DNA of 64,000 nt from Candidatus Hydrogenedentota bacterium. GTDB lineage: Bacteria; Hydrogenedentota; Hydrogenedentia; Hydrogenedentales; SLHB01. A program made the translations under genes and the position numbers. Location of the stretch: contig CAVUWV010000017.1 of the NCBI GenBank assembly GCA_963745075.1, positions 64,001-128,000 of the forward strand. The letters run 5' to 3'. Below the pieces are notes generated by a model. That model had not been told where the DNA came from. It ran no database searches and was given only the letters and a program-made list of their open reading frames with translations. This document shows, piece after piece, positions 58,258 through 63,624 of the stretch; the stretch's first letter is position 1, and each line of letters starts with the position of its first letter.

Positions 58258-60336
58258 TTGATTTCGAGTCGAAAACTACTCGCCGGACTCAATCCGGAGC
58301 AAGCGGAAGCGGTCCGTCAGACGGAAGGTCCGGTCCTCATTCTCGCCGGCGCCGGCAGTGGCAAGACGCGCGTGATCACCCGGCGCATCGCCTATCTTAT
58401 CGCCGAAGGGATTGCGGAGCCCGAATCCATTCTGGCGTTGACCTTTACCAACAAAGCCGCGGAAGAAATGCGCGTCCGCATTGCAGAACTGGTCGGCAAG
58501 AAGACTGCCGACCGTCTCGTTCTGTCCACGTTTCATTCGTTCTGCTTGCGCGTATTGCGCACCGAATGTGATCGCATCGGGTATCGCCGGAATTTCACGG
58601 TATCCGGCGAGTCGGATACGCGGACGCTGGTCCGCCGTATGCTTGACGACATTGCGGACGTGAAAGAGAGCTTCAGTCCGGCCATCGTGCTCGAACGGAT
58701 CAGCTTGGTGAAATGCGGTAAGGCGACACTGGATGCCAACGGTACGACGACAAAGAGTGAGGTCGAGTCCGCGACGGAAGCGAAGTACGGCAAGTGGCTG
58801 CCCGAGTTTTACCAACGGTATCAGTCGGCGTTGCGGGCGTCCAATACCATGGATTTCGACGATCTCCTCGGGCTCACATTGAAACTGTGGCAGGAACACC
58901 CGCGCGTGCTGGCCCGATATCAGAAGCAGTATCGGTATGTGATGGTCGACGAGTACCAGGACACCAATCACATCCAGTACGAATTGCTGTCCGCACTCGT
59001 CGCGGCGCACCGCAACCTGTGTGTCGTCGGCGACGACGACCAATCTATCTACGCCTGGCGAGGCGCGGGGATCGAAAACATCCTCGACTTCGAGCGGGAG
59101 TATCCGAAAGCCCACGTCGTCCGGCTCGAACAGAACTATCGCTCGACGACGACAATCCTCGATGCGGCAAACCACGTCATCCTGAACAACCGGGAGCGGC
59201 GTCCCAAGAAACTCTGGAGTGACCTCGGCGAAGGCCGAGTCATCGACTGGATCGTCACGGGGGACGAAGAACACGAAGCCAAGGAAGCCGTGAACTGGCT
59301 TGGCCACATCGTCCAGCGGTCCAATGCGGAATTCGGCGACTTCGCCTTGTTGTACCGGTCCAACCAGCAGTCCCGTCCCCTGGAAATCGCCTTCCGGCAA
59401 GCGGGCATCCCGTACGAAGTGTATGGGGGGCAGGACTTCTTCGAGCGCAGCGAGGTGCGCGATGTGGTGGCTTACCTGCGTACCATCGCCAATCCCCGGG
59501 ATGAGTCGGCCTTTCTCCGTGTGGTCAATGTTCCGCGGCGCGGCATTGGGGACGTCACCCTGCACGAAGTGCACGAACTGTGCCGGGCCGAATCCCTGAC
59601 CCTCGGAAAAGGGCTGGCGGCGGCGCTGGCCCGTCAGAAAGTCTCCAGCCAGGCGGAAGCCGGTATCCGTACGTTTCTCGCGGTACTGACCGAGTTTCGG
59701 CGGCGTTTTCGGGAGTGCGATGGGCGTTTGGCCGAAACCCTCGAAGCGCTCCTCATGCGGATCGCCTACCGCGCCGAACTCGTCCGAACCAGCAAGACTC
59801 CCGACCAAGCCTCGGTTCGTTGGGCGAACGTCGAAGCGGTCGTCGCGGCCATGGCCGACTACGAACGTTCCACGTCCCATCCGACCCTGAGCGGATTCCT
59901 CGATCAAAGCTCTCTCGATACGTCCGACATCAAAGGACGCGGGCGGGAACGGCGCAAGGATGCGGTGTCGCTCATGACAATTCACAGTGCAAAAGGGCTG
60001 GAGTTCCCCTTCGTCTTCGTGATGGGCGTGGAGGAAGGGCTACTGCCGCACGACAAGTGCGTGGGCGAACGGGCCGTCGAAGAAGAGCGCCGTCTGTTTT
60101 ACGTGGCACTGACACGCGGAAAGCGCCATGTGACGCTATTCGAAGCCATCTCCCGCGTGCGCAACGGGCGGGAGCGCATGGCGTCGACCAGCCGCTTCGT
60201 CAAGGAGATTCCCGAGTCCCTGGTGAATCGTCACATCCGGGCCGCGCACGACATGGTGCGTGCTCGCGTCGAGCCACCTGCGTTGAAGACGCGCCGCGGC
60301 AAGCCTAGGGCATCGACTCGCAGTCGAAAGCGATAA
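58258..60336 (+). CDS. UvrD/PcrA/Rep superfamily 1 DNA helicase
   Basis: AGAGSGKT, TFTNKAA, VDEYQDTN, VGDDDQSIY, LEQNYRS, TIHSAKGLEF and EERRLFYVALTR. Confidence 0.96.
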   Translation: MISSRKLLAGLNPEQAEAVRQTEGPVLILAGAGSGKTRVITRRIAYLIAEGIAEPESILALTFTNKAAEEMRVRIAELVGKKTADRLVLSTFHSFCLRVLRTECDRIGYRRNFTVSGESDTRTLVRRMLDDIADVKESFSPAIVLERISLVKCGKATLDANGTTTKSEVESATEAKYGKWLPEFYQRYQSALRASNTMDFDDLLGLTLKLWQEHPRVLARYQKQYRYVMVDEYQDTNHIQYELLSALVAAHRNLCVVGDDDQSIYAWRGAGIENILDFEREYPKAHVVRLEQNYRSTTTILDAANHVILNNRERRPKKLWSDLGEGRVIDWIVTGDEEHEAKEAVNWLGHIVQRSNAEFGDFALLYRSNQQSRPLEIAFRQAGIPYEVYGGQDFFERSEVRDVVAYLRTIANPRDESAFLRVVNVPRRGIGDVTLHEVHELCRAESLTLGKGLAAALARQKVSSQAEAGIRTFLAVLTEFRRRFRECDGRLAETLEALLMRIAYRAELVRTSKTPDQASVRWANVEAVVAAMADYERSTSHPTLSGFLDQSSLDTSDIKGRGRERRKDAVSLMTIHSAKGLEFPFVFVMGVEEGLLPHDKCVGERAVEEERRLFYVALTRGKRHVTLFEAISRVRNGRERMASTSRFVKEIPESLVNRHIRAAHDMVRARVEPPALKTRRGKPRASTRSRKR

Positions 60337-60373
60337 AAAACAAACGGACTGCGGCTTCACACCGCAGTCCGTT
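60335..60373 (-). terminator. Intrinsic terminator of the small-peptide cluster
   Basis: 12-bp perfect stem AACGGACTGCGG/CCGCAGTCCGTT, followed by TGTTTTTT on the minus strand. Confidence 0.8.
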
Positions 60374-60427
60374 CGAATCACCATTCAAGCGCCGGTCGAA
60401 CCGGCGACTCTACTTTCGAATACCAGA

Positions 60428-60637
60428 TTACTGGCCGTCAATGACGCCGTTGCCGTTCCGGTCACCCAGCAGCCCTTCGGGCAGCAGGGTCCCGCCGAAC
60501 AGCCAGCCCCACCACTTCTCCATGGTCAGGCCGATGACGACGACGATATCCGTCAAGCTCATGATGTCAAAATAGTTTCTCGGCACCTGATAGGCGGTAG
60601 CCGGAAGCGCCTTCGAAACGCGACCGATGTGCTTCAT
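60428..60637 (-). CDS. MKH-leader small peptide 3 (69 aa)
   Basis: AAGGAGG RBS; MKHIGRVSKALPATA leader shared with the two neighbouring genes. Confidence 0.8.
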   Translation of the reverse strand: MKHIGRVSKALPATAYQVPRNYFDIMSLTDIVVVIGLTMEKWWGWLFGGTLLPEGLLGDRNGNGVIDGQ

Positions 60638-60761
60638 GTTCCTTAAACCTCCTTAAGGTTTGTATCCCGGTTGAAACGCATTTACGAACCCCGCCGCCCC
60701 GCGAATGCGGGACGAACTTCAACCCTGGGGTGCCCATGCCGGGCGCGAACCCGGTGGGCAG

Positions 60762-60920
60762 TTACACGTCTCGGGGATCCAAGGAGCCGTTGGTGAACCA
60801 AAGCTGATTGATGTAGTTGGTCTTGGCACCAGTACCCTTCAGCTCACCGCCCTTACCGAACCAGCCGAACCACCAAGCGGTCACCGGCGCATTCTTCGAT
60901 ATCTTGCGAACGTGTTTCAT
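60762..60920 (-). CDS. MKH-leader small peptide 2 (52 aa; not in the ORF track)
   Basis: Translated by hand: MKHVRKISKNAPVTAWWFGWFGKGGELKGTGAKTNYINQLWFTNGSLDPRDV. GAAAGGG RBS; alternative ATG at 60926. Confidence 0.8.
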   Translation of the reverse strand: MKHVRKISKNAPVTAWWFGWFGKGGELKGTGAKTNYINQLWFTNGSLDPRDV

Positions 60921-61097
60921 TGTCATTTACCCTTTCGCGAAACACTCCCATTGCACACAGGCATGGGTTGTTTTTTCCAATCCGTTGTCAATAGGAGCTT
61001 CGTTCGCGGAAGCCTTGGAATGGATAGATACCGGAGCTATCCCCTCCATCTCTCCTTCCGCTTTTACCCTCACGGGATTGTGTCATTGATTCGAATC

Positions 61098-61250
61098 CTA
61101 GCTCTGCAGCCAGTTATCGAATAACGCGACGAGCCAGTTCTGTTGCGCAGGACGCAACTTCAACGGCCCAAAAATGTTCTTCAATTCGACCCACGCGACC
61201 TGCTCGGCACGCACGGGCTTTTCGGTCGACAGCACCTTCACATGCTTCAT
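61098..61250 (-). CDS. MKH-leader small peptide 1 (50 aa)
   Basis: GGAGGTG RBS before an internal ATG of track ORF 61098..61322. Sequence: MKHVKVLSTEKPVRAEQVAWVELKNIFGPLKLRPAQQNWLVALFDNWLQS. Confidence 0.8.
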   Translation of the reverse strand: MKHVKVLSTEKPVRAEQVAWVELKNIFGPLKLRPAQQNWLVALFDNWLQS

Positions 61251-61414
61251 ATGGCGATTCACCTCCCTTCTCCTTCCGTCTTGTTGTTGGTTGGAAACCA
61301 TTTCCCAATCCGCTTGGTCCAAACAATTGACCTGTCTGTACCCCTTATTGTGAACGATTTGATCGCAATAAGCAACCCCTTGTGGGTGTCAACAACGGCG
61401 GGCACCGTATGTGC

Positions 61415-62986
61415 TTACTGCGCCCCGTTCAGCGAGATCCCCATCCCTCGCAAATAATCGAAGAGTGAGAGGTCCCCGGATTGCAGTATCCACCCGGAAA
61501 TCATGTTGAGGAAATCGGTTCCGCTCTGACTGGAGAAGAGCTGATCCAACTCTTGGAAGAACCCGCCCAACTGGTCGATGCTCGTGACCAGGTCCGCCGT
61601 TTGTGACGTTAACTGATCGATTCCCTCAGGAGATTCAATTGTTGTGTAAAGCTGTTCAAGCACATCAATTGCGGCCGCCTGCATATCCAGTCCGGCCAAT
61701 TGCTCCTGAGAAAGAGACGCCCCGGTCTCCACCTGCTGGCCCAACCGCTGTACGGCCTGCGCAATGTCTTGGGCGGTATTGTAATCCCCTACCGCCATAT
61801 AGTCTTGGCCGTATTCTAGCAGATTCTTCCCTAGATCGCAAAGGAAATTGTACTGATCCACTCCCGCTGTCAACGCGGATACGGCCTTGGCCTGATCGGC
61901 CGGAAGCCCGCTTGCCATAAGCGCTTCCGCCTTTGCCATCGCCGACTCCAGCGAATAGGCGCTGGCCGTGGGCAGCGTCTGCGCGATCCGCAACGCTTCC
62001 AGCGCCCCGGCGAGGTCGTTCTGTTCCAGCCGAAGCTTCGCTTCCAGGTAGTAGGGCAAGGCGTTATTGGGATCGAGCGTATGGAGCGTCGGCACTTGTT
62101 CGAGGGCTTGCGTCTCCGATTCCGGCGTCGCGGTCTCGTCCAACGCTTTTGCCAATTCAAGCTGAGCGGGCGCGTTGTCTGGCACCTGCCCCACCACCGT
62201 CAACAACACTTGAGCCGCTTCTTCGCCCGTAAGCGATTCCGCCGCCCCCAACTTCACCTGAGGCGACGAATCCGGACTTCGAGCCAAGTCGATTGCCTCC
62301 TCTTTCTTGAGGCTGGCCCATTGCATCAGGCGGCTTATTCCCCGGCTGTCATTCGACGCGTCGCGCCGTGCCGCCAGGATTTCGTCCATCGTCGGCGTGT
62401 CCAGCGCAGGGCTTTCCGTAGCTTCCATCTCGCCCGAAGGCTGTCCGGACCGCGTCTCGTCGGGGATTCGTTTGCGCTTCTCATCAAACTGCTTGAGCCG
62501 AGTCGCGATCGTGGTGTCCAGTTGAGGCGTTGGCTCGATGGCGCGTTCTATCGGAGTCTTCTCCGGCGTAACCAATTGATTGCCGCCGCCGGGCACGTTC
62601 GCCGGCGTTGGAACTTCTTTGAACAGCACGTACCCCAGCAAGGCGAGAATCGCGGCCGCCGCCGCCGCTACACCCAACCAGGTCCGGCCACGCTCCCGCC
62701 GGCGCGCGCGTTCGGCATCGATGGACACAATCTTCTCGGGACGATTGGCCTGAGCTACGGTGTCCATGACGGATTCGACCAAGTCGACCTGAGGTGTCTT
62801 GGAGGCAAAGGCGCGGCCCATGGCATCCAAGTCCGCGTAAGCGGACTGTAGCCACATGTGCTCCCGGCGATACGCGTCCGACGAAGCGATTTGCGCTTCC
62901 ACGCGCCGCGCCTCCTCGGGGCTCAACTCGCCCTCCAGGAGAGCCAGTAGCTCTTCCTGGATCTTTTCCAGTTCCCCAGTGTTCAC
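61415..62986 (-). CDS. Putative transmembrane anti-sigma factor with large helical extracytoplasmic domain
   Basis: N-terminal LLALLEGELSPEEARRVE (ASD-like), a single TM helix and TPR-like DPNNALPYYLEA; overlaps the ECF sigma stop. Confidence 0.75.
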   Translation of the reverse strand: MNTGELEKIQEELLALLEGELSPEEARRVEAQIASSDAYRREHMWLQSAYADLDAMGRAFASKTPQVDLVESVMDTVAQANRPEKIVSIDAERARRRERGRTWLGVAAAAAAILALLGYVLFKEVPTPANVPGGGNQLVTPEKTPIERAIEPTPQLDTTIATRLKQFDEKRKRIPDETRSGQPSGEMEATESPALDTPTMDEILAARRDASNDSRGISRLMQWASLKKEEAIDLARSPDSSPQVKLGAAESLTGEEAAQVLLTVVGQVPDNAPAQLELAKALDETATPESETQALEQVPTLHTLDPNNALPYYLEAKLRLEQNDLAGALEALRIAQTLPTASAYSLESAMAKAEALMASGLPADQAKAVSALTAGVDQYNFLCDLGKNLLEYGQDYMAVGDYNTAQDIAQAVQRLGQQVETGASLSQEQLAGLDMQAAAIDVLEQLYTTIESPEGIDQLTSQTADLVTSIDQLGGFFQELDQLFSSQSGTDFLNMISGWILQSGDLSLFDYLRGMGISLNGAQ

Positions 62987-63624
62987 AAATCGTCCTTTGC
63001 CGACTGATATACGTCCCGCAGCGACTTCAGGATGCGGTGCAGTCGGGTTCGCACCGCGCCCTCCGTGCTGCCGACGATTTCCGCAATATCGCGTGCCTGC
63101 ATCCGTTCAAAGAACCGCAAGGTCACGATTTCCCTGGACTCATGATCGAGCGAGGCCAGCGCTTCCGCCAACAACTCATAGCGCTCGGCCATCATGAGAA
63201 GCCCATCCGGCCCGTCTGCCGGCGACTGCAACACCTCGCCGGTCTCCTCCCGGGCGCTGCTCGCGTATTCCTCGAGGGATTCCATGGGTACCGCCTTCTT
63301 GCGCTTCAACTCGTTCAGACAAAGGTTGCGCGCGATGCACAGTACCCAGGGGCGAAACTTTCGACTCGCGTCGAACCGCGCCCGGGCCACATACACGCGG
63401 ATGAACGTTTCCTGGGCCATTTCCCGGGCCCGTTCCACGTCCCGCACGTAGTGGAGGCAGAATCTGAAAATGTCGTTCTGGTACCGGTGTACGAGCGTGC
63501 CCAGAGCGTCCGCCGTGCCCTCGCACAGGAGGACCATCAGCGCCTCATCGGTTTGAGTGCTCGCGCTCAACCGGTAATCCATTGCCGGTAACGAGTTACG
63601 AGGGCCTTGCGGTTTCGTTGCCAC
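62983..63624 (-). CDS. ECF-type RNA polymerase sigma factor
   Basis: Region 2 AREMAQETFIRVY...FRPWVLCIARNLC; region 4 DIAEIVGSTEGAVRTRLHR. Confidence 0.93.
   Translation of the reverse strand: MATKPQGPRNSLPAMDYRLSASTQTDEALMVLLCEGTADALGTLVHRYQNDIFRFCLHYVRDVERAREMAQETFIRVYVARARFDASRKFRPWVLCIARNLCLNELKRKKAVPMESLEEYASSAREETGEVLQSPADGPDGLLMMAERYELLAEALASLDHESREIVTLRFFERMQARDIAEIVGSTEGAVRTRLHRILKSLRDVYQSAKDDL

Follow-up and report, generated by a model that had tools for sequence, protein, structure and literature searches.

Three small tandem genes at the locus

The stretch of Ca. Hydrogenedentota DNA analysed here, 64,000 nucleotides long and referred to as the window, carries three small open reading frames in tandem, which we call peptides A, B and C. 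All three lie on the minus strand, a detail left out by the earlier note on this DNA, which had otherwise placed and translated the same frames correctly. Together with the genes on either side, the array comprises the following features:

62983..63624, minus strand: ECF-type sigma-70 factor (PF04542, PF08281, TIGR02937), start codon uncertain
61415..62986, minus strand: anti-sigma-like protein with a zf-HC2-like N-terminus and a TPR-like region (Pfam and NCBIfam matches below cut-off)
61370..61375, minus strand: putative -35 box (TTGCTT) of a sigma-70-type promoter belonging to the array; consensus TTGc.T kept in 29 aligned upstream regions of A
61347..61352, minus strand: putative -10 box CACAAT, 17 nt from the -35 box, kept in the upstream alignment
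61260..61266, minus strand: Shine-Dalgarno site of peptide A, conserved in the alignment
61250-61098, minus strand: peptide A, 50 aa; leader residues 1-15 (61250-61206), core residues 16-50
61179..61181, minus strand: Lys24 codon of A, candidate (predicted) acylation site; K24 in 28/28 orthologues
61006..61061, minus strand: hairpin-like element GCGGAAG...CTTCCGC in the A-B spacer, ends conserved in the alignment
60930..60935, minus strand: ribosome-binding site of peptide B, weaker; GAAAGG nearly invariant in 25 aligned spacers
60920-60762, minus strand: peptide B, 52 aa; leader residues 1-15, core that begins Trp-rich and, in close relatives, ends in (S/T)LDPxD
60647..60655, minus strand: Shine-Dalgarno-like site of peptide C
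60637-60428, minus strand: peptide C, 69 aa; leader residues 1-15, core with a hydrophobic 17-residue segment (KD 1.8) and then a single Lys
60375-60341, minus strand: intrinsic-terminator-like hairpin closing the array, 15 pairs and a T tail
58258..60336, plus strand: UvrD/Rep helicase (PF00580, PF13361), convergent neighbour that is not part of the system

As had been claimed from the letters alone, the 15-residue leaders of A, B and C align without gaps, each gene has a ribosome-binding site of its own (that of B weaker yet conserved), and a terminator-like hairpin closes the array. The three cores hold 3, 4 and 3 Trp residues, respectively, and no Cys, and their net charges are 0, +1 and -3. 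An AlphaFold model of A shows helices at residues 13-27 and 34-49 (pLDDT 73); a Foldseek search with this model returned no match, and the ESM Atlas clusters nearest to A are unnamed. Searches of Pfam and NCBIfam gave no family for A, B or C, and a profile built from 15 peptides of the leader family described below found nothing among the PDB sequences.

The TTGCTT-17-CACAAT element upstream of A suggests that the array has its own sigma-70-type promoter. A sigma-70 scan missed this conserved candidate, and the promoter that it placed inside C was disregarded. The closing hairpin separates the array from the convergent uvrD and is probably shared by the two; terminator-like sites as such are no more frequent in the region than expected (4 versus 4.7). 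As for the element in the A-B spacer, inspection by eye places its closing stem in 18 of 28 single-sequence MFE structures and not in that of the window genome itself, while RNAalifold over the whole A-B spacer yielded no consensus structure and an Rfam search of 60300-61450 no match. Transcription of the array is weakly seen: RNA-library contigs from 4 of 20 matching runs (4 studies) cover mainly 60428-61445 and bridge the spacers, but they stem from relatives that are <90% to >99% alike, leave strand and level unreadable and may include DNA. No run contained half of the query words, and lack of cover elsewhere is no evidence of absence.

Conservation of and selection on A, B and C

Orthologues of A were present in 32 of 135 genomes, including 30 of the 53 other genomes of the same family and one outside it. 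In one genome (G015), A is 88% identical to that of the window genome and the anti-sigma protein 44%. Across the 30 loci that we fetched, the A-B-C order is mostly preserved, and each locus yielded 2-6 peptides. Residues M1, K2, H3, P12, A15, K24 and W39 are invariant in the alignment of 28 A peptides, and M1, H3, P12 and A15 in that of 26 second-position (B) peptides; the C alignment comprises 19 third-position peptides. Concatenated dN/dS values for six genome pairs were 0.16, 0.11, 0.14, 0.21, 0.32 and 0.22. Taken separately, the core of A gave 0.04-0.14 where computable and that of B 0.11-0.44, whereas the core of C gave 0.11-0.15 within the genus and looser values of 0.33-0.85 against the next genus. 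Judged by these ratios (0.11-0.32), A, B and C each form an orthologous group, three in all, on which purifying selection acts, and this selection strongly supports their translation. The cores had previously been described as unrelated and hypervariable; they are indeed unrelated to each other, but they are conserved between genomes rather than hypervariable.

A leader family across the genome and the phylum

In the genome as a whole (6.8 Mb), the strict leader pattern of the earlier note matched 5 out of 440,258 candidate starts, compared with 0.0007 expected. Iterated PSSM and HMM searches, with seeds partly hand-picked from the regex lists, led to a family of 25 leader ORFs of 32-71 aa at 14 loci. 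Members passing the RBS filter had HMM scores of at least 24 bits, versus 11.4 for the best non-member; a first loose regex and HMM run had been discarded as too noisy. The length of the leader varies across the family, with modes of 14-15 and a spread of about 10-17 residues or more, and the cores differ widely. Indeed, 13 of the 25 have no Trp and 13 of the 25 have at least two core Cys, and Cys-free cores with 3-4 Trp, which the earlier note had seen in A, B and C, are therefore not a trait of the family. The paralogues other than A, B and C are patchy and mobile. Their neighbours at the other 13 loci (asparagine-synthetase-like, FadL-like, an M4 protease and an RND pump) were rejected as general machinery, as they are not common across loci.

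At the level of the phylum, a strict DNA pattern encoding M-K-H-[ILVM]-x-x-[ILVM]-[ST-like] gave 782 matches in 135 genomes, 132 of which had at least one, versus 52 matches for a reversed control. The lineage-specific leader-core family proposed earlier, along with the leader search suggested as its check, thus received clear backing from the 25 paralogues and the phylum-wide matches, with the qualification that the lineage is essentially the whole of Ca. Hydrogenedentota.

Likeness of the leader to SCIFF ranthipeptides

Residues 1-7 of the leader match the leader of the SCIFF ranthipeptides. For this comparison, at least 70 distinct SCIFF peptides were taken from 80 of the 119 metagenome stretches that match a SCIFF core motif, and TIGR03973 confirmed three of three SCIFF peptides tested. 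Position profiles of 66 SCIFFs and 157 family peptides gave the start M-K-[HR]-[IV]-K-T-[LI]-[NET] for the former and M-K-H-[IVL]-[KR]-x-[VIL]-[ST] for the latter, with differences at positions 6 and 8. A PSSM built from the 66 SCIFFs alone placed 12 of the 25 family members among the top 20 of 270,922 starts; A ranked 3rd, B 16th and C 161st, and three divergent paralogues (C9) ranked between 567 and 2610. No SCIFF gene over the cut-off was found in the window genome. Given this likeness, the leader of the array is not unprecedented. According to two reports, the CteA leader binds the maturase CteB as a strand that extends the beta-sheet of its RRE (PMC6231123, PMC8326336).

A candidate machinery operon on another contig

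The earlier note had assumed that the maturation machinery is encoded elsewhere, and a candidate was found on a contig other than that of the array:

G000:C20:140571-133684, minus strand: candidate machinery operon, single-copy in the window genome

Two leader peptides head this operon. Three GNATs and a type II CAAX protease come with them, as do an ABC ATPase with its ABC-2 permease and a maturase of 640 aa. Of 38 loci with the CAAX protease, 33 have one to five leader peptides immediately ahead of the GNATs; four of the remaining five loci are cut by contig ends, and the fifth (G029) has none within 3.5 kb. The last operon-linked peptide is strongly conserved (consensus RA-DAFxDFxNAxWRAWxDFxYxKKNE), and most of the others are hydrophobic helices that end in Lys. 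The CAAX protease (Rce1-like, PF02517) was found in 39 of 41 genomes, with one copy each (one split in two), and carries the EExxxR and FxxxH motifs in 38/38 and HxxRD/N in 35/38 cases. The exporter consists of a 346-aa DrrA-like ATPase (PF00005) and a separate ABC-2 permease (PF12698).

Two or three standalone GNATs are present per operon and match PF13302/PF13420 (RimJ/SpeG-type). With the R/Q-x-x-G-x-G/A loop and N-x-x-S taken as the GNAT motifs, the loop is absent from 35/35 GNAT3, 6/6 GNAT2 and 31/34 GNAT1 sequences, and N-x-x-S is kept only by GNAT3 (34/35). The closest solved relatives of GNAT3 are SpeG amine acetyltransferases (PDB 8FV0, 4MJ8). All four GNAT domains, including one fused to the maturase, look atypical, GNAT1 and GNAT2 even degenerate, so that their chemistry may differ.

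The maturase gene lies directly behind that of the permease at 19 of 20 loci and was found in 123/135 genomes, or 83 of the 86 high-quality ones; GTDB records with it are mostly titled Ca. Hydrogenedentota, with a minority under other labels. Its product combines a CteB-type RRE, a SAM barrel, a SPASM domain and a fused C-terminal GNAT. The best PDB match is CteB itself (5WGG; sequence E 1.5e-20, Foldseek E 4e-17), which covers the RRE, barrel and SPASM, while the C-terminal domain matches SpeG-type GNATs and, weakly, an L7/L12 acetyltransferase model. The SPASM domain scores over the cut-off of TIGR04085, and its residues C393, C396, C402 and C425, together with C25/C28, are invariant in 19 orthologues. 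By contrast with CteB, none of the 19 orthologues has the radical-SAM CxxxCxxC; the residues aligned with the CteB motif are replaced, and PF04055 gave no match. Of the co-occurring genes anticipated earlier, those for an RRE, a peptidase and an ABC exporter are hence present in the distant operon, but the radical-SAM motif is not, which makes the maturase a candidate pseudoenzyme, radical-dead yet RRE-bearing. Its RRE is the only CteB-type one found in the window genome (E 8e-50; next match E 0.49). The N-terminus of the other SPASM radical-SAM protein checked (C26) is not of RRE length. The two ESM Atlas clusters nearest to the maturase are labelled 'hypothetical' and are mostly from Hydrogenedentota. 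As far as sequence comparison goes, leader and RRE are both SCIFF-derived, while neither the thioether chemistry nor the Cys core has been retained.

The leader family and the maturase are largely lost together. The 12 genomes without a maturase match had a mean of 1.7 pattern matches versus 6.2 in the other 123, although 9 of these 12 belong to one family (f3) and thus represent few independent events. Seven pattern matches read from five maturase-less genomes were not leader-like (ORFs of 7, 14 and 18 aa, long proteins, no end motif), whereas 10 of 12 from five maturase-bearing genomes were typical family members. Four maturase-less genomes that are 93-97% complete (G037, G072, G074 and G042) also lack a GNAT3 orthologue. 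In a further one (G102, 88% complete), the missing maturase is probably an assembly gap, since a GNAT3 orthologue and five pattern matches are retained.

Lysine in the cores

Only 1 of 157 non-redundant family peptides, drawn from all the loci fetched, has a core without Lys, compared with 24.6 expected from composition, and no other residue shows such a deficit. The result was the same with fixed cut points at residues 15, 17 or 20 (1/157 versus about 26) and similar at 22 (4 versus 32); the minimum in 2000 shuffles was 12 Lys-less cores. Related peptides are not independent in this statistic; with one peptide per cluster, the counts were 1/99 versus 16, 1/66 versus 11 and, for the coarsest clustering, 0/31 versus 4.5 (z -2.3). 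A set of 208 control short genes showed the opposite, with 60 lacking Lys versus 35 expected, and within the window genome alone the test was not significant (0/25 versus 1.7 expected). No common sequence pattern stood out around the core Lys, and the residue that follows the leader Ala (+1) is highly variable.

A proposed maturation and export pathway and its alternatives

From these observations we consider it probable, with considerable room for doubt, that A, B and C are remote precursors of a phylum-wide, SCIFF-derived peptide-maturation and export pathway, in which their cores would undergo RRE-guided Lys acylation, cleavage after Ala and export in trans. The array has no physical link to the machinery operon, which speaks against such a pathway. 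Transcribed from its own sigma-70-type promoter and translated, the array would yield peptides whose leader residues 1-8 may bind the RRE of the maturase as a beta-strand, in the way the SCIFF leader does on CteB; given the homology of both partners, this binding in trans very likely applies to A, B and C. A GNAT complex, with GNAT3 as the likeliest catalytic subunit, would then acylate the epsilon-amine of the core Lys, for example K24 of A. We regard this step as rather probable because of the near-universal core Lys and the likeness to SpeG. The CAAX protease could cut after the conserved Ala of P-x-x-A, which is residue 15 in A, B and C, and the ABC-2 transporter could export the cores, acylated and for the most part amphipathic, to the envelope or the medium; cleavage at Ala15 and export by these proteins are likely. 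The neutral to acidic amphipathic cores, the fixed gene order and the purifying selection suggest that mature A, B and C would be envelope or signalling components rather than weapons or bacteriocins, which is the weakest step of the proposal.

A wider version, which we offer as a tentative possibility, is that a SCIFF system has been turned into a general lipidation and secretion pathway in Ca. Hydrogenedentota. A radical-dead RRE-SPASM protein would read the tag, GNATs with a remodelled donor-binding loop would add a fatty acyl group to Lys, the CAAX protease would act as a dedicated signal peptidase, and the ABC-2 transporter would export dozens of conserved mini-proteins that build or signal at the envelope, as a Lys-anchored counterpart of the cysteine lipoprotein pathway.

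The same route of leader, RRE, CAAX protease and ABC transporter might serve another chemistry, which is unlikely but has to be weighed. Here the GNATs would acylate the new N-terminus in a RimJ/RimL-like manner, or modify only the operon-linked peptides, or else Lys would be needed for cross-linking, anchoring or transporter recognition. The match of the operon GNATs to PF13302 (RimJ/RimL-type), the weak L7/L12 match of the maturase GNAT, the missing CoA-binding loop motif and the lack of a common Lys context all fit such a reading, and the SPASM cysteines, invariant in 19/19 maturases, would allow an Fe-S-dependent step. N-terminal acylation would, however, leave the Lys in 156 of 157 cores unexplained; moreover, the closest solved structures are alkyl-amine acetyltransferases and the +1 residue varies too widely to favour it.

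Alternatively, the array could serve the adjacent pair of ECF sigma and anti-sigma factors, with the exported peptides as ligand or output of a signalling loop, a reading that is compatible with the maturation route and that we hold to be quite unlikely. In its favour, the array comes straight after the anti-sigma gene at 26 of the 30 loci, an arrangement that spans genera in which the anti-sigma protein is only 34-57% identical. In addition, SCIFF products are listed as quorum-sensing peptides in one report (PMC8326336). Of the four other array loci, one is cut by a contig end, but in the three from one genus (g8) the A-B pair stands behind an unrelated gene. Furthermore, the anti-sigma-like gene, found in 38/41 genomes, occurs without the array in most other families, and the conserved array promoter looks sigma-70-like. 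Downstream, the neighbours vary, with uvrD next to the array in this genus alone, so that positional inertia may explain the link. In one family the association of array and ECF pair is ancient, without being obligatory.

The function named first in the earlier note, here taken as bacteriocin-like antimicrobials with diversifying cores, is improbable. Trp-rich amphipathic helices and the patchy, mobile nature of the other paralogues would suit it, as would the CAAX proteases and ABC transporters that toxin RiPP clusters carry according to one report (PMC4603692). The conserved orthologous cores, with dN/dS of 0.11-0.32 in six pairs, argue against a fast-diversifying antimicrobial role; the fixed A-B-C order, the core net charges of 0, +1 and -3, the near-universal, single-copy machinery and the lack of an immunity-like gene adjoining the array in the window genome also stand against it.

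Finally, A, B and C might be small proteins that stay unprocessed, or else substrates of Sec and signal peptidase I, with a common N-terminus that has nothing to do with the GNAT-CAAX-ABC operon. This is very improbable: the P/A-x-A end of the leader resembles a signal-peptidase site and the family genes are scattered among unrelated neighbours, but, in agreement with the earlier reading, the leader has no h-region (best 8-residue Kyte-Doolittle means of 0.29, 0.00 and 0.59 for A, B and C), and the same leader heads the operon in 33/38 loci, matches the SCIFF leader and is lost along with the operon.

Comparison with known systems

The proposed maturation and export pathway shares features with several known systems. 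It resembles the SCIFF ranthipeptides (TIGR03973/TIGR03974; CteA/CteB, 5WGG) in leader residues 1-7, in a maturase with RRE, barrel and SPASM, and in its lineage-wide, housekeeping-like spread. It differs in that the cores of A, B and C lack the six Cys (they have no core Cys) and match no NCBIfam model, in that the maturase has a fused GNAT and no CxxxCxxC (0/19), and in the many unrelated precursors served in trans by additional GNATs, a CAAX protease and an ABC-2 exporter. With the selidamides (kamptornamide, phaeornamide and nostolysamides), whose GNATs are able to attach fatty acyl groups to Lys or Orn of ribosomal peptides (PMC8784127), it has in common GNAT maturases (here three standalone and one fused), Lys-containing cores (156/157 here) and the proposed acylation of a side-chain amine. 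The precursors of selidamides carry leaders of the NHLP or Nif11 type with a Gly-Gly end, and they come with LanM and with GNATs cited as PF00583 (PMC8784127). Here, in contrast, a SCIFF-type tag of 10-17 aa is combined with GNATs matching PF13302/PF13420 and SpeG and with a CAAX-type protease, and no lanthionine synthetase is found in the operon. The pathway would thus work like a selidamide route driven by SCIFF-type recognition while belonging to neither: the absent radical motif and six-Cys core set it outside SCIFF, and the absent leader and LanM features outside the selidamides.

The cytolysin-type TOMMs of the streptolysin S family likewise have a CaaX-like protease and an ABC transporter beside a leader-core precursor (PMC4603692); unlike there, no cyclodehydratase or dehydrogenase is among the operon genes and the cores lack Cys/Ser/Thr runs. 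SpeG spermidine N-acetyltransferases (8FV0, 4MJ8), the closest solved relatives of both GNAT3 and the maturase GNAT domain, differ in their low identity (about 15-18% for the maturase domain), in the altered CoA loop here and in the context, which is that of peptide precursors rather than polyamine metabolism. Class II double-glycine bacteriocins are set apart by the leader, which ends in Ala and, as already pointed out in the earlier note, has no double-glycine site, and by the exporter, which has no C39 domain. In the cyanobacterial prochlorosin and Nif11 systems, one maturase, a lanthionine synthetase, serves many scattered precursors with a common leader and hypervariable cores. The system proposed here would resemble them in having one maturase for many scattered precursors, but its cores form conserved orthologous groups.

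A literature search on Hydrogenedentota RiPPs and leaders, GNATs with CPBP, degenerate radical SAM proteins with RRE and GNAT, and CAAX leader peptidases, which covered mostly non-subscription papers in their main texts, found no description of such a system, although the tables of a compendium of RiPP radical-SAM proteins (PMC10288494) might list the maturase. If the proposal is correct, a near-universal core pathway of an uncultured phylum would have been overlooked, its substrates being genes of 30-75 aa without a Pfam or NCBIfam model and its maturase having no radical-SAM Pfam match. A radical-SAM RiPP enzyme would then have lost its radical chemistry, kept leader recognition and become an adaptor for acylation. 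With the operon, the role of a type II CAAX protease as a leader peptidase could also be put to a direct test, and a machine tolerant of very diverse cores after a tag of about 15 residues could be useful for making defined lysine-acylated peptides; the size of all the genes would allow co-expression in E. coli. A third ESM Atlas cluster near the maturase, at 0.85, combines radical SAM and GNAT in Bacillota and is noted as a lead only.

Maturase motif and surroundings of the machinery operon

The RRE of the maturase, the 640-aa protein encoded in the machinery operon, carries a short cysteine-rich motif which is near-invariant among orthologues, and the operon itself is preceded by a promoter-like sequence (coordinates with L refer to separate sequence stretches, those with G000:C to contigs of the genome under study):

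L113:15523-15540 region, maturase residues 23-28: C-F-C-F-E-C motif
L009:6650-6690, minus strand: near-consensus promoter TTGACA-17-TATACT, upstream of the machinery operon, read by eye
L113:10803-13534 (G000:C20): fatty-acid genes yceD-plsX-fabG, adjoining the maturase gene and convergent with it

C25 and C28 were conserved in all 19 orthologues and C23 in 18 of them, whereas the aligned stretch of CteB lacks the motif; C-F-C-F-E-C is possibly a new metal site. The promoter sequence suggests housekeeping expression of the machinery operon. Among the 20 maturase loci compared, yceD-plsX-fabG were convergent with the maturase in three genomes of the genus and plsX lay nearby in one more, but given that neither arrangement occurred at the other 16 loci, these genes do not count as evidence for a fatty acyl donor.

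Elements and neighbours of the A-B-C array

Three further features were found in connection with the array:

window 61006-61061, minus strand: conserved hairpin-like element GCGGAAG...CTTCCGC whose inner stem varies, located in the spacer between A and B
L392:4030-4680 (G000:C21:7030-7680), minus strand: protein of 216 aa that has a hydrophobic segment at its N-terminus
L007:12099-12272 (G000:C17:132272), minus strand: fourth leader-family peptide, with a four-Cys core, just past the window end

The spacer element, which had no match in Rfam and whose word CGGAAGGAGA is found again upstream of A, within its 5' UTR (61269-61278), may act as a cis-regulatory or processing element. Homologues of the 216-aa protein, itself without a Pfam match, follow the array on the same strand at 5 of 30 loci, making it a possible partner. 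The gene for the four-Cys peptide precedes recF, close to gyrB, and is placed approximately 7 kb upstream of the array.

Other peptide loci in the genome

Two additional leader-peptide arrays and one further short ORF were located elsewhere:

G000:C9:112898-116203 (L001:4898-8203): five peptides with two-Cys cores
G000:C18:191493-193913 (L008): at least two peptides with two-Cys cores
L394:4502-4657 (G000:C10:373502), plus strand: 51-aa ORF containing the stretch LFIRDL and two copies of a TTLAxGEE repeat

Both arrays are preceded by genes for secreted M4 thermolysin-type proteases and have the family's most divergent leaders; the C9 array also encloses a partial duplicate of the M4 C-terminal part. 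The 51-aa ORF is followed by an ATP-grasp-like fragment (L394:5382-5600), a pair that resembles a graspetide precursor and its ligase.
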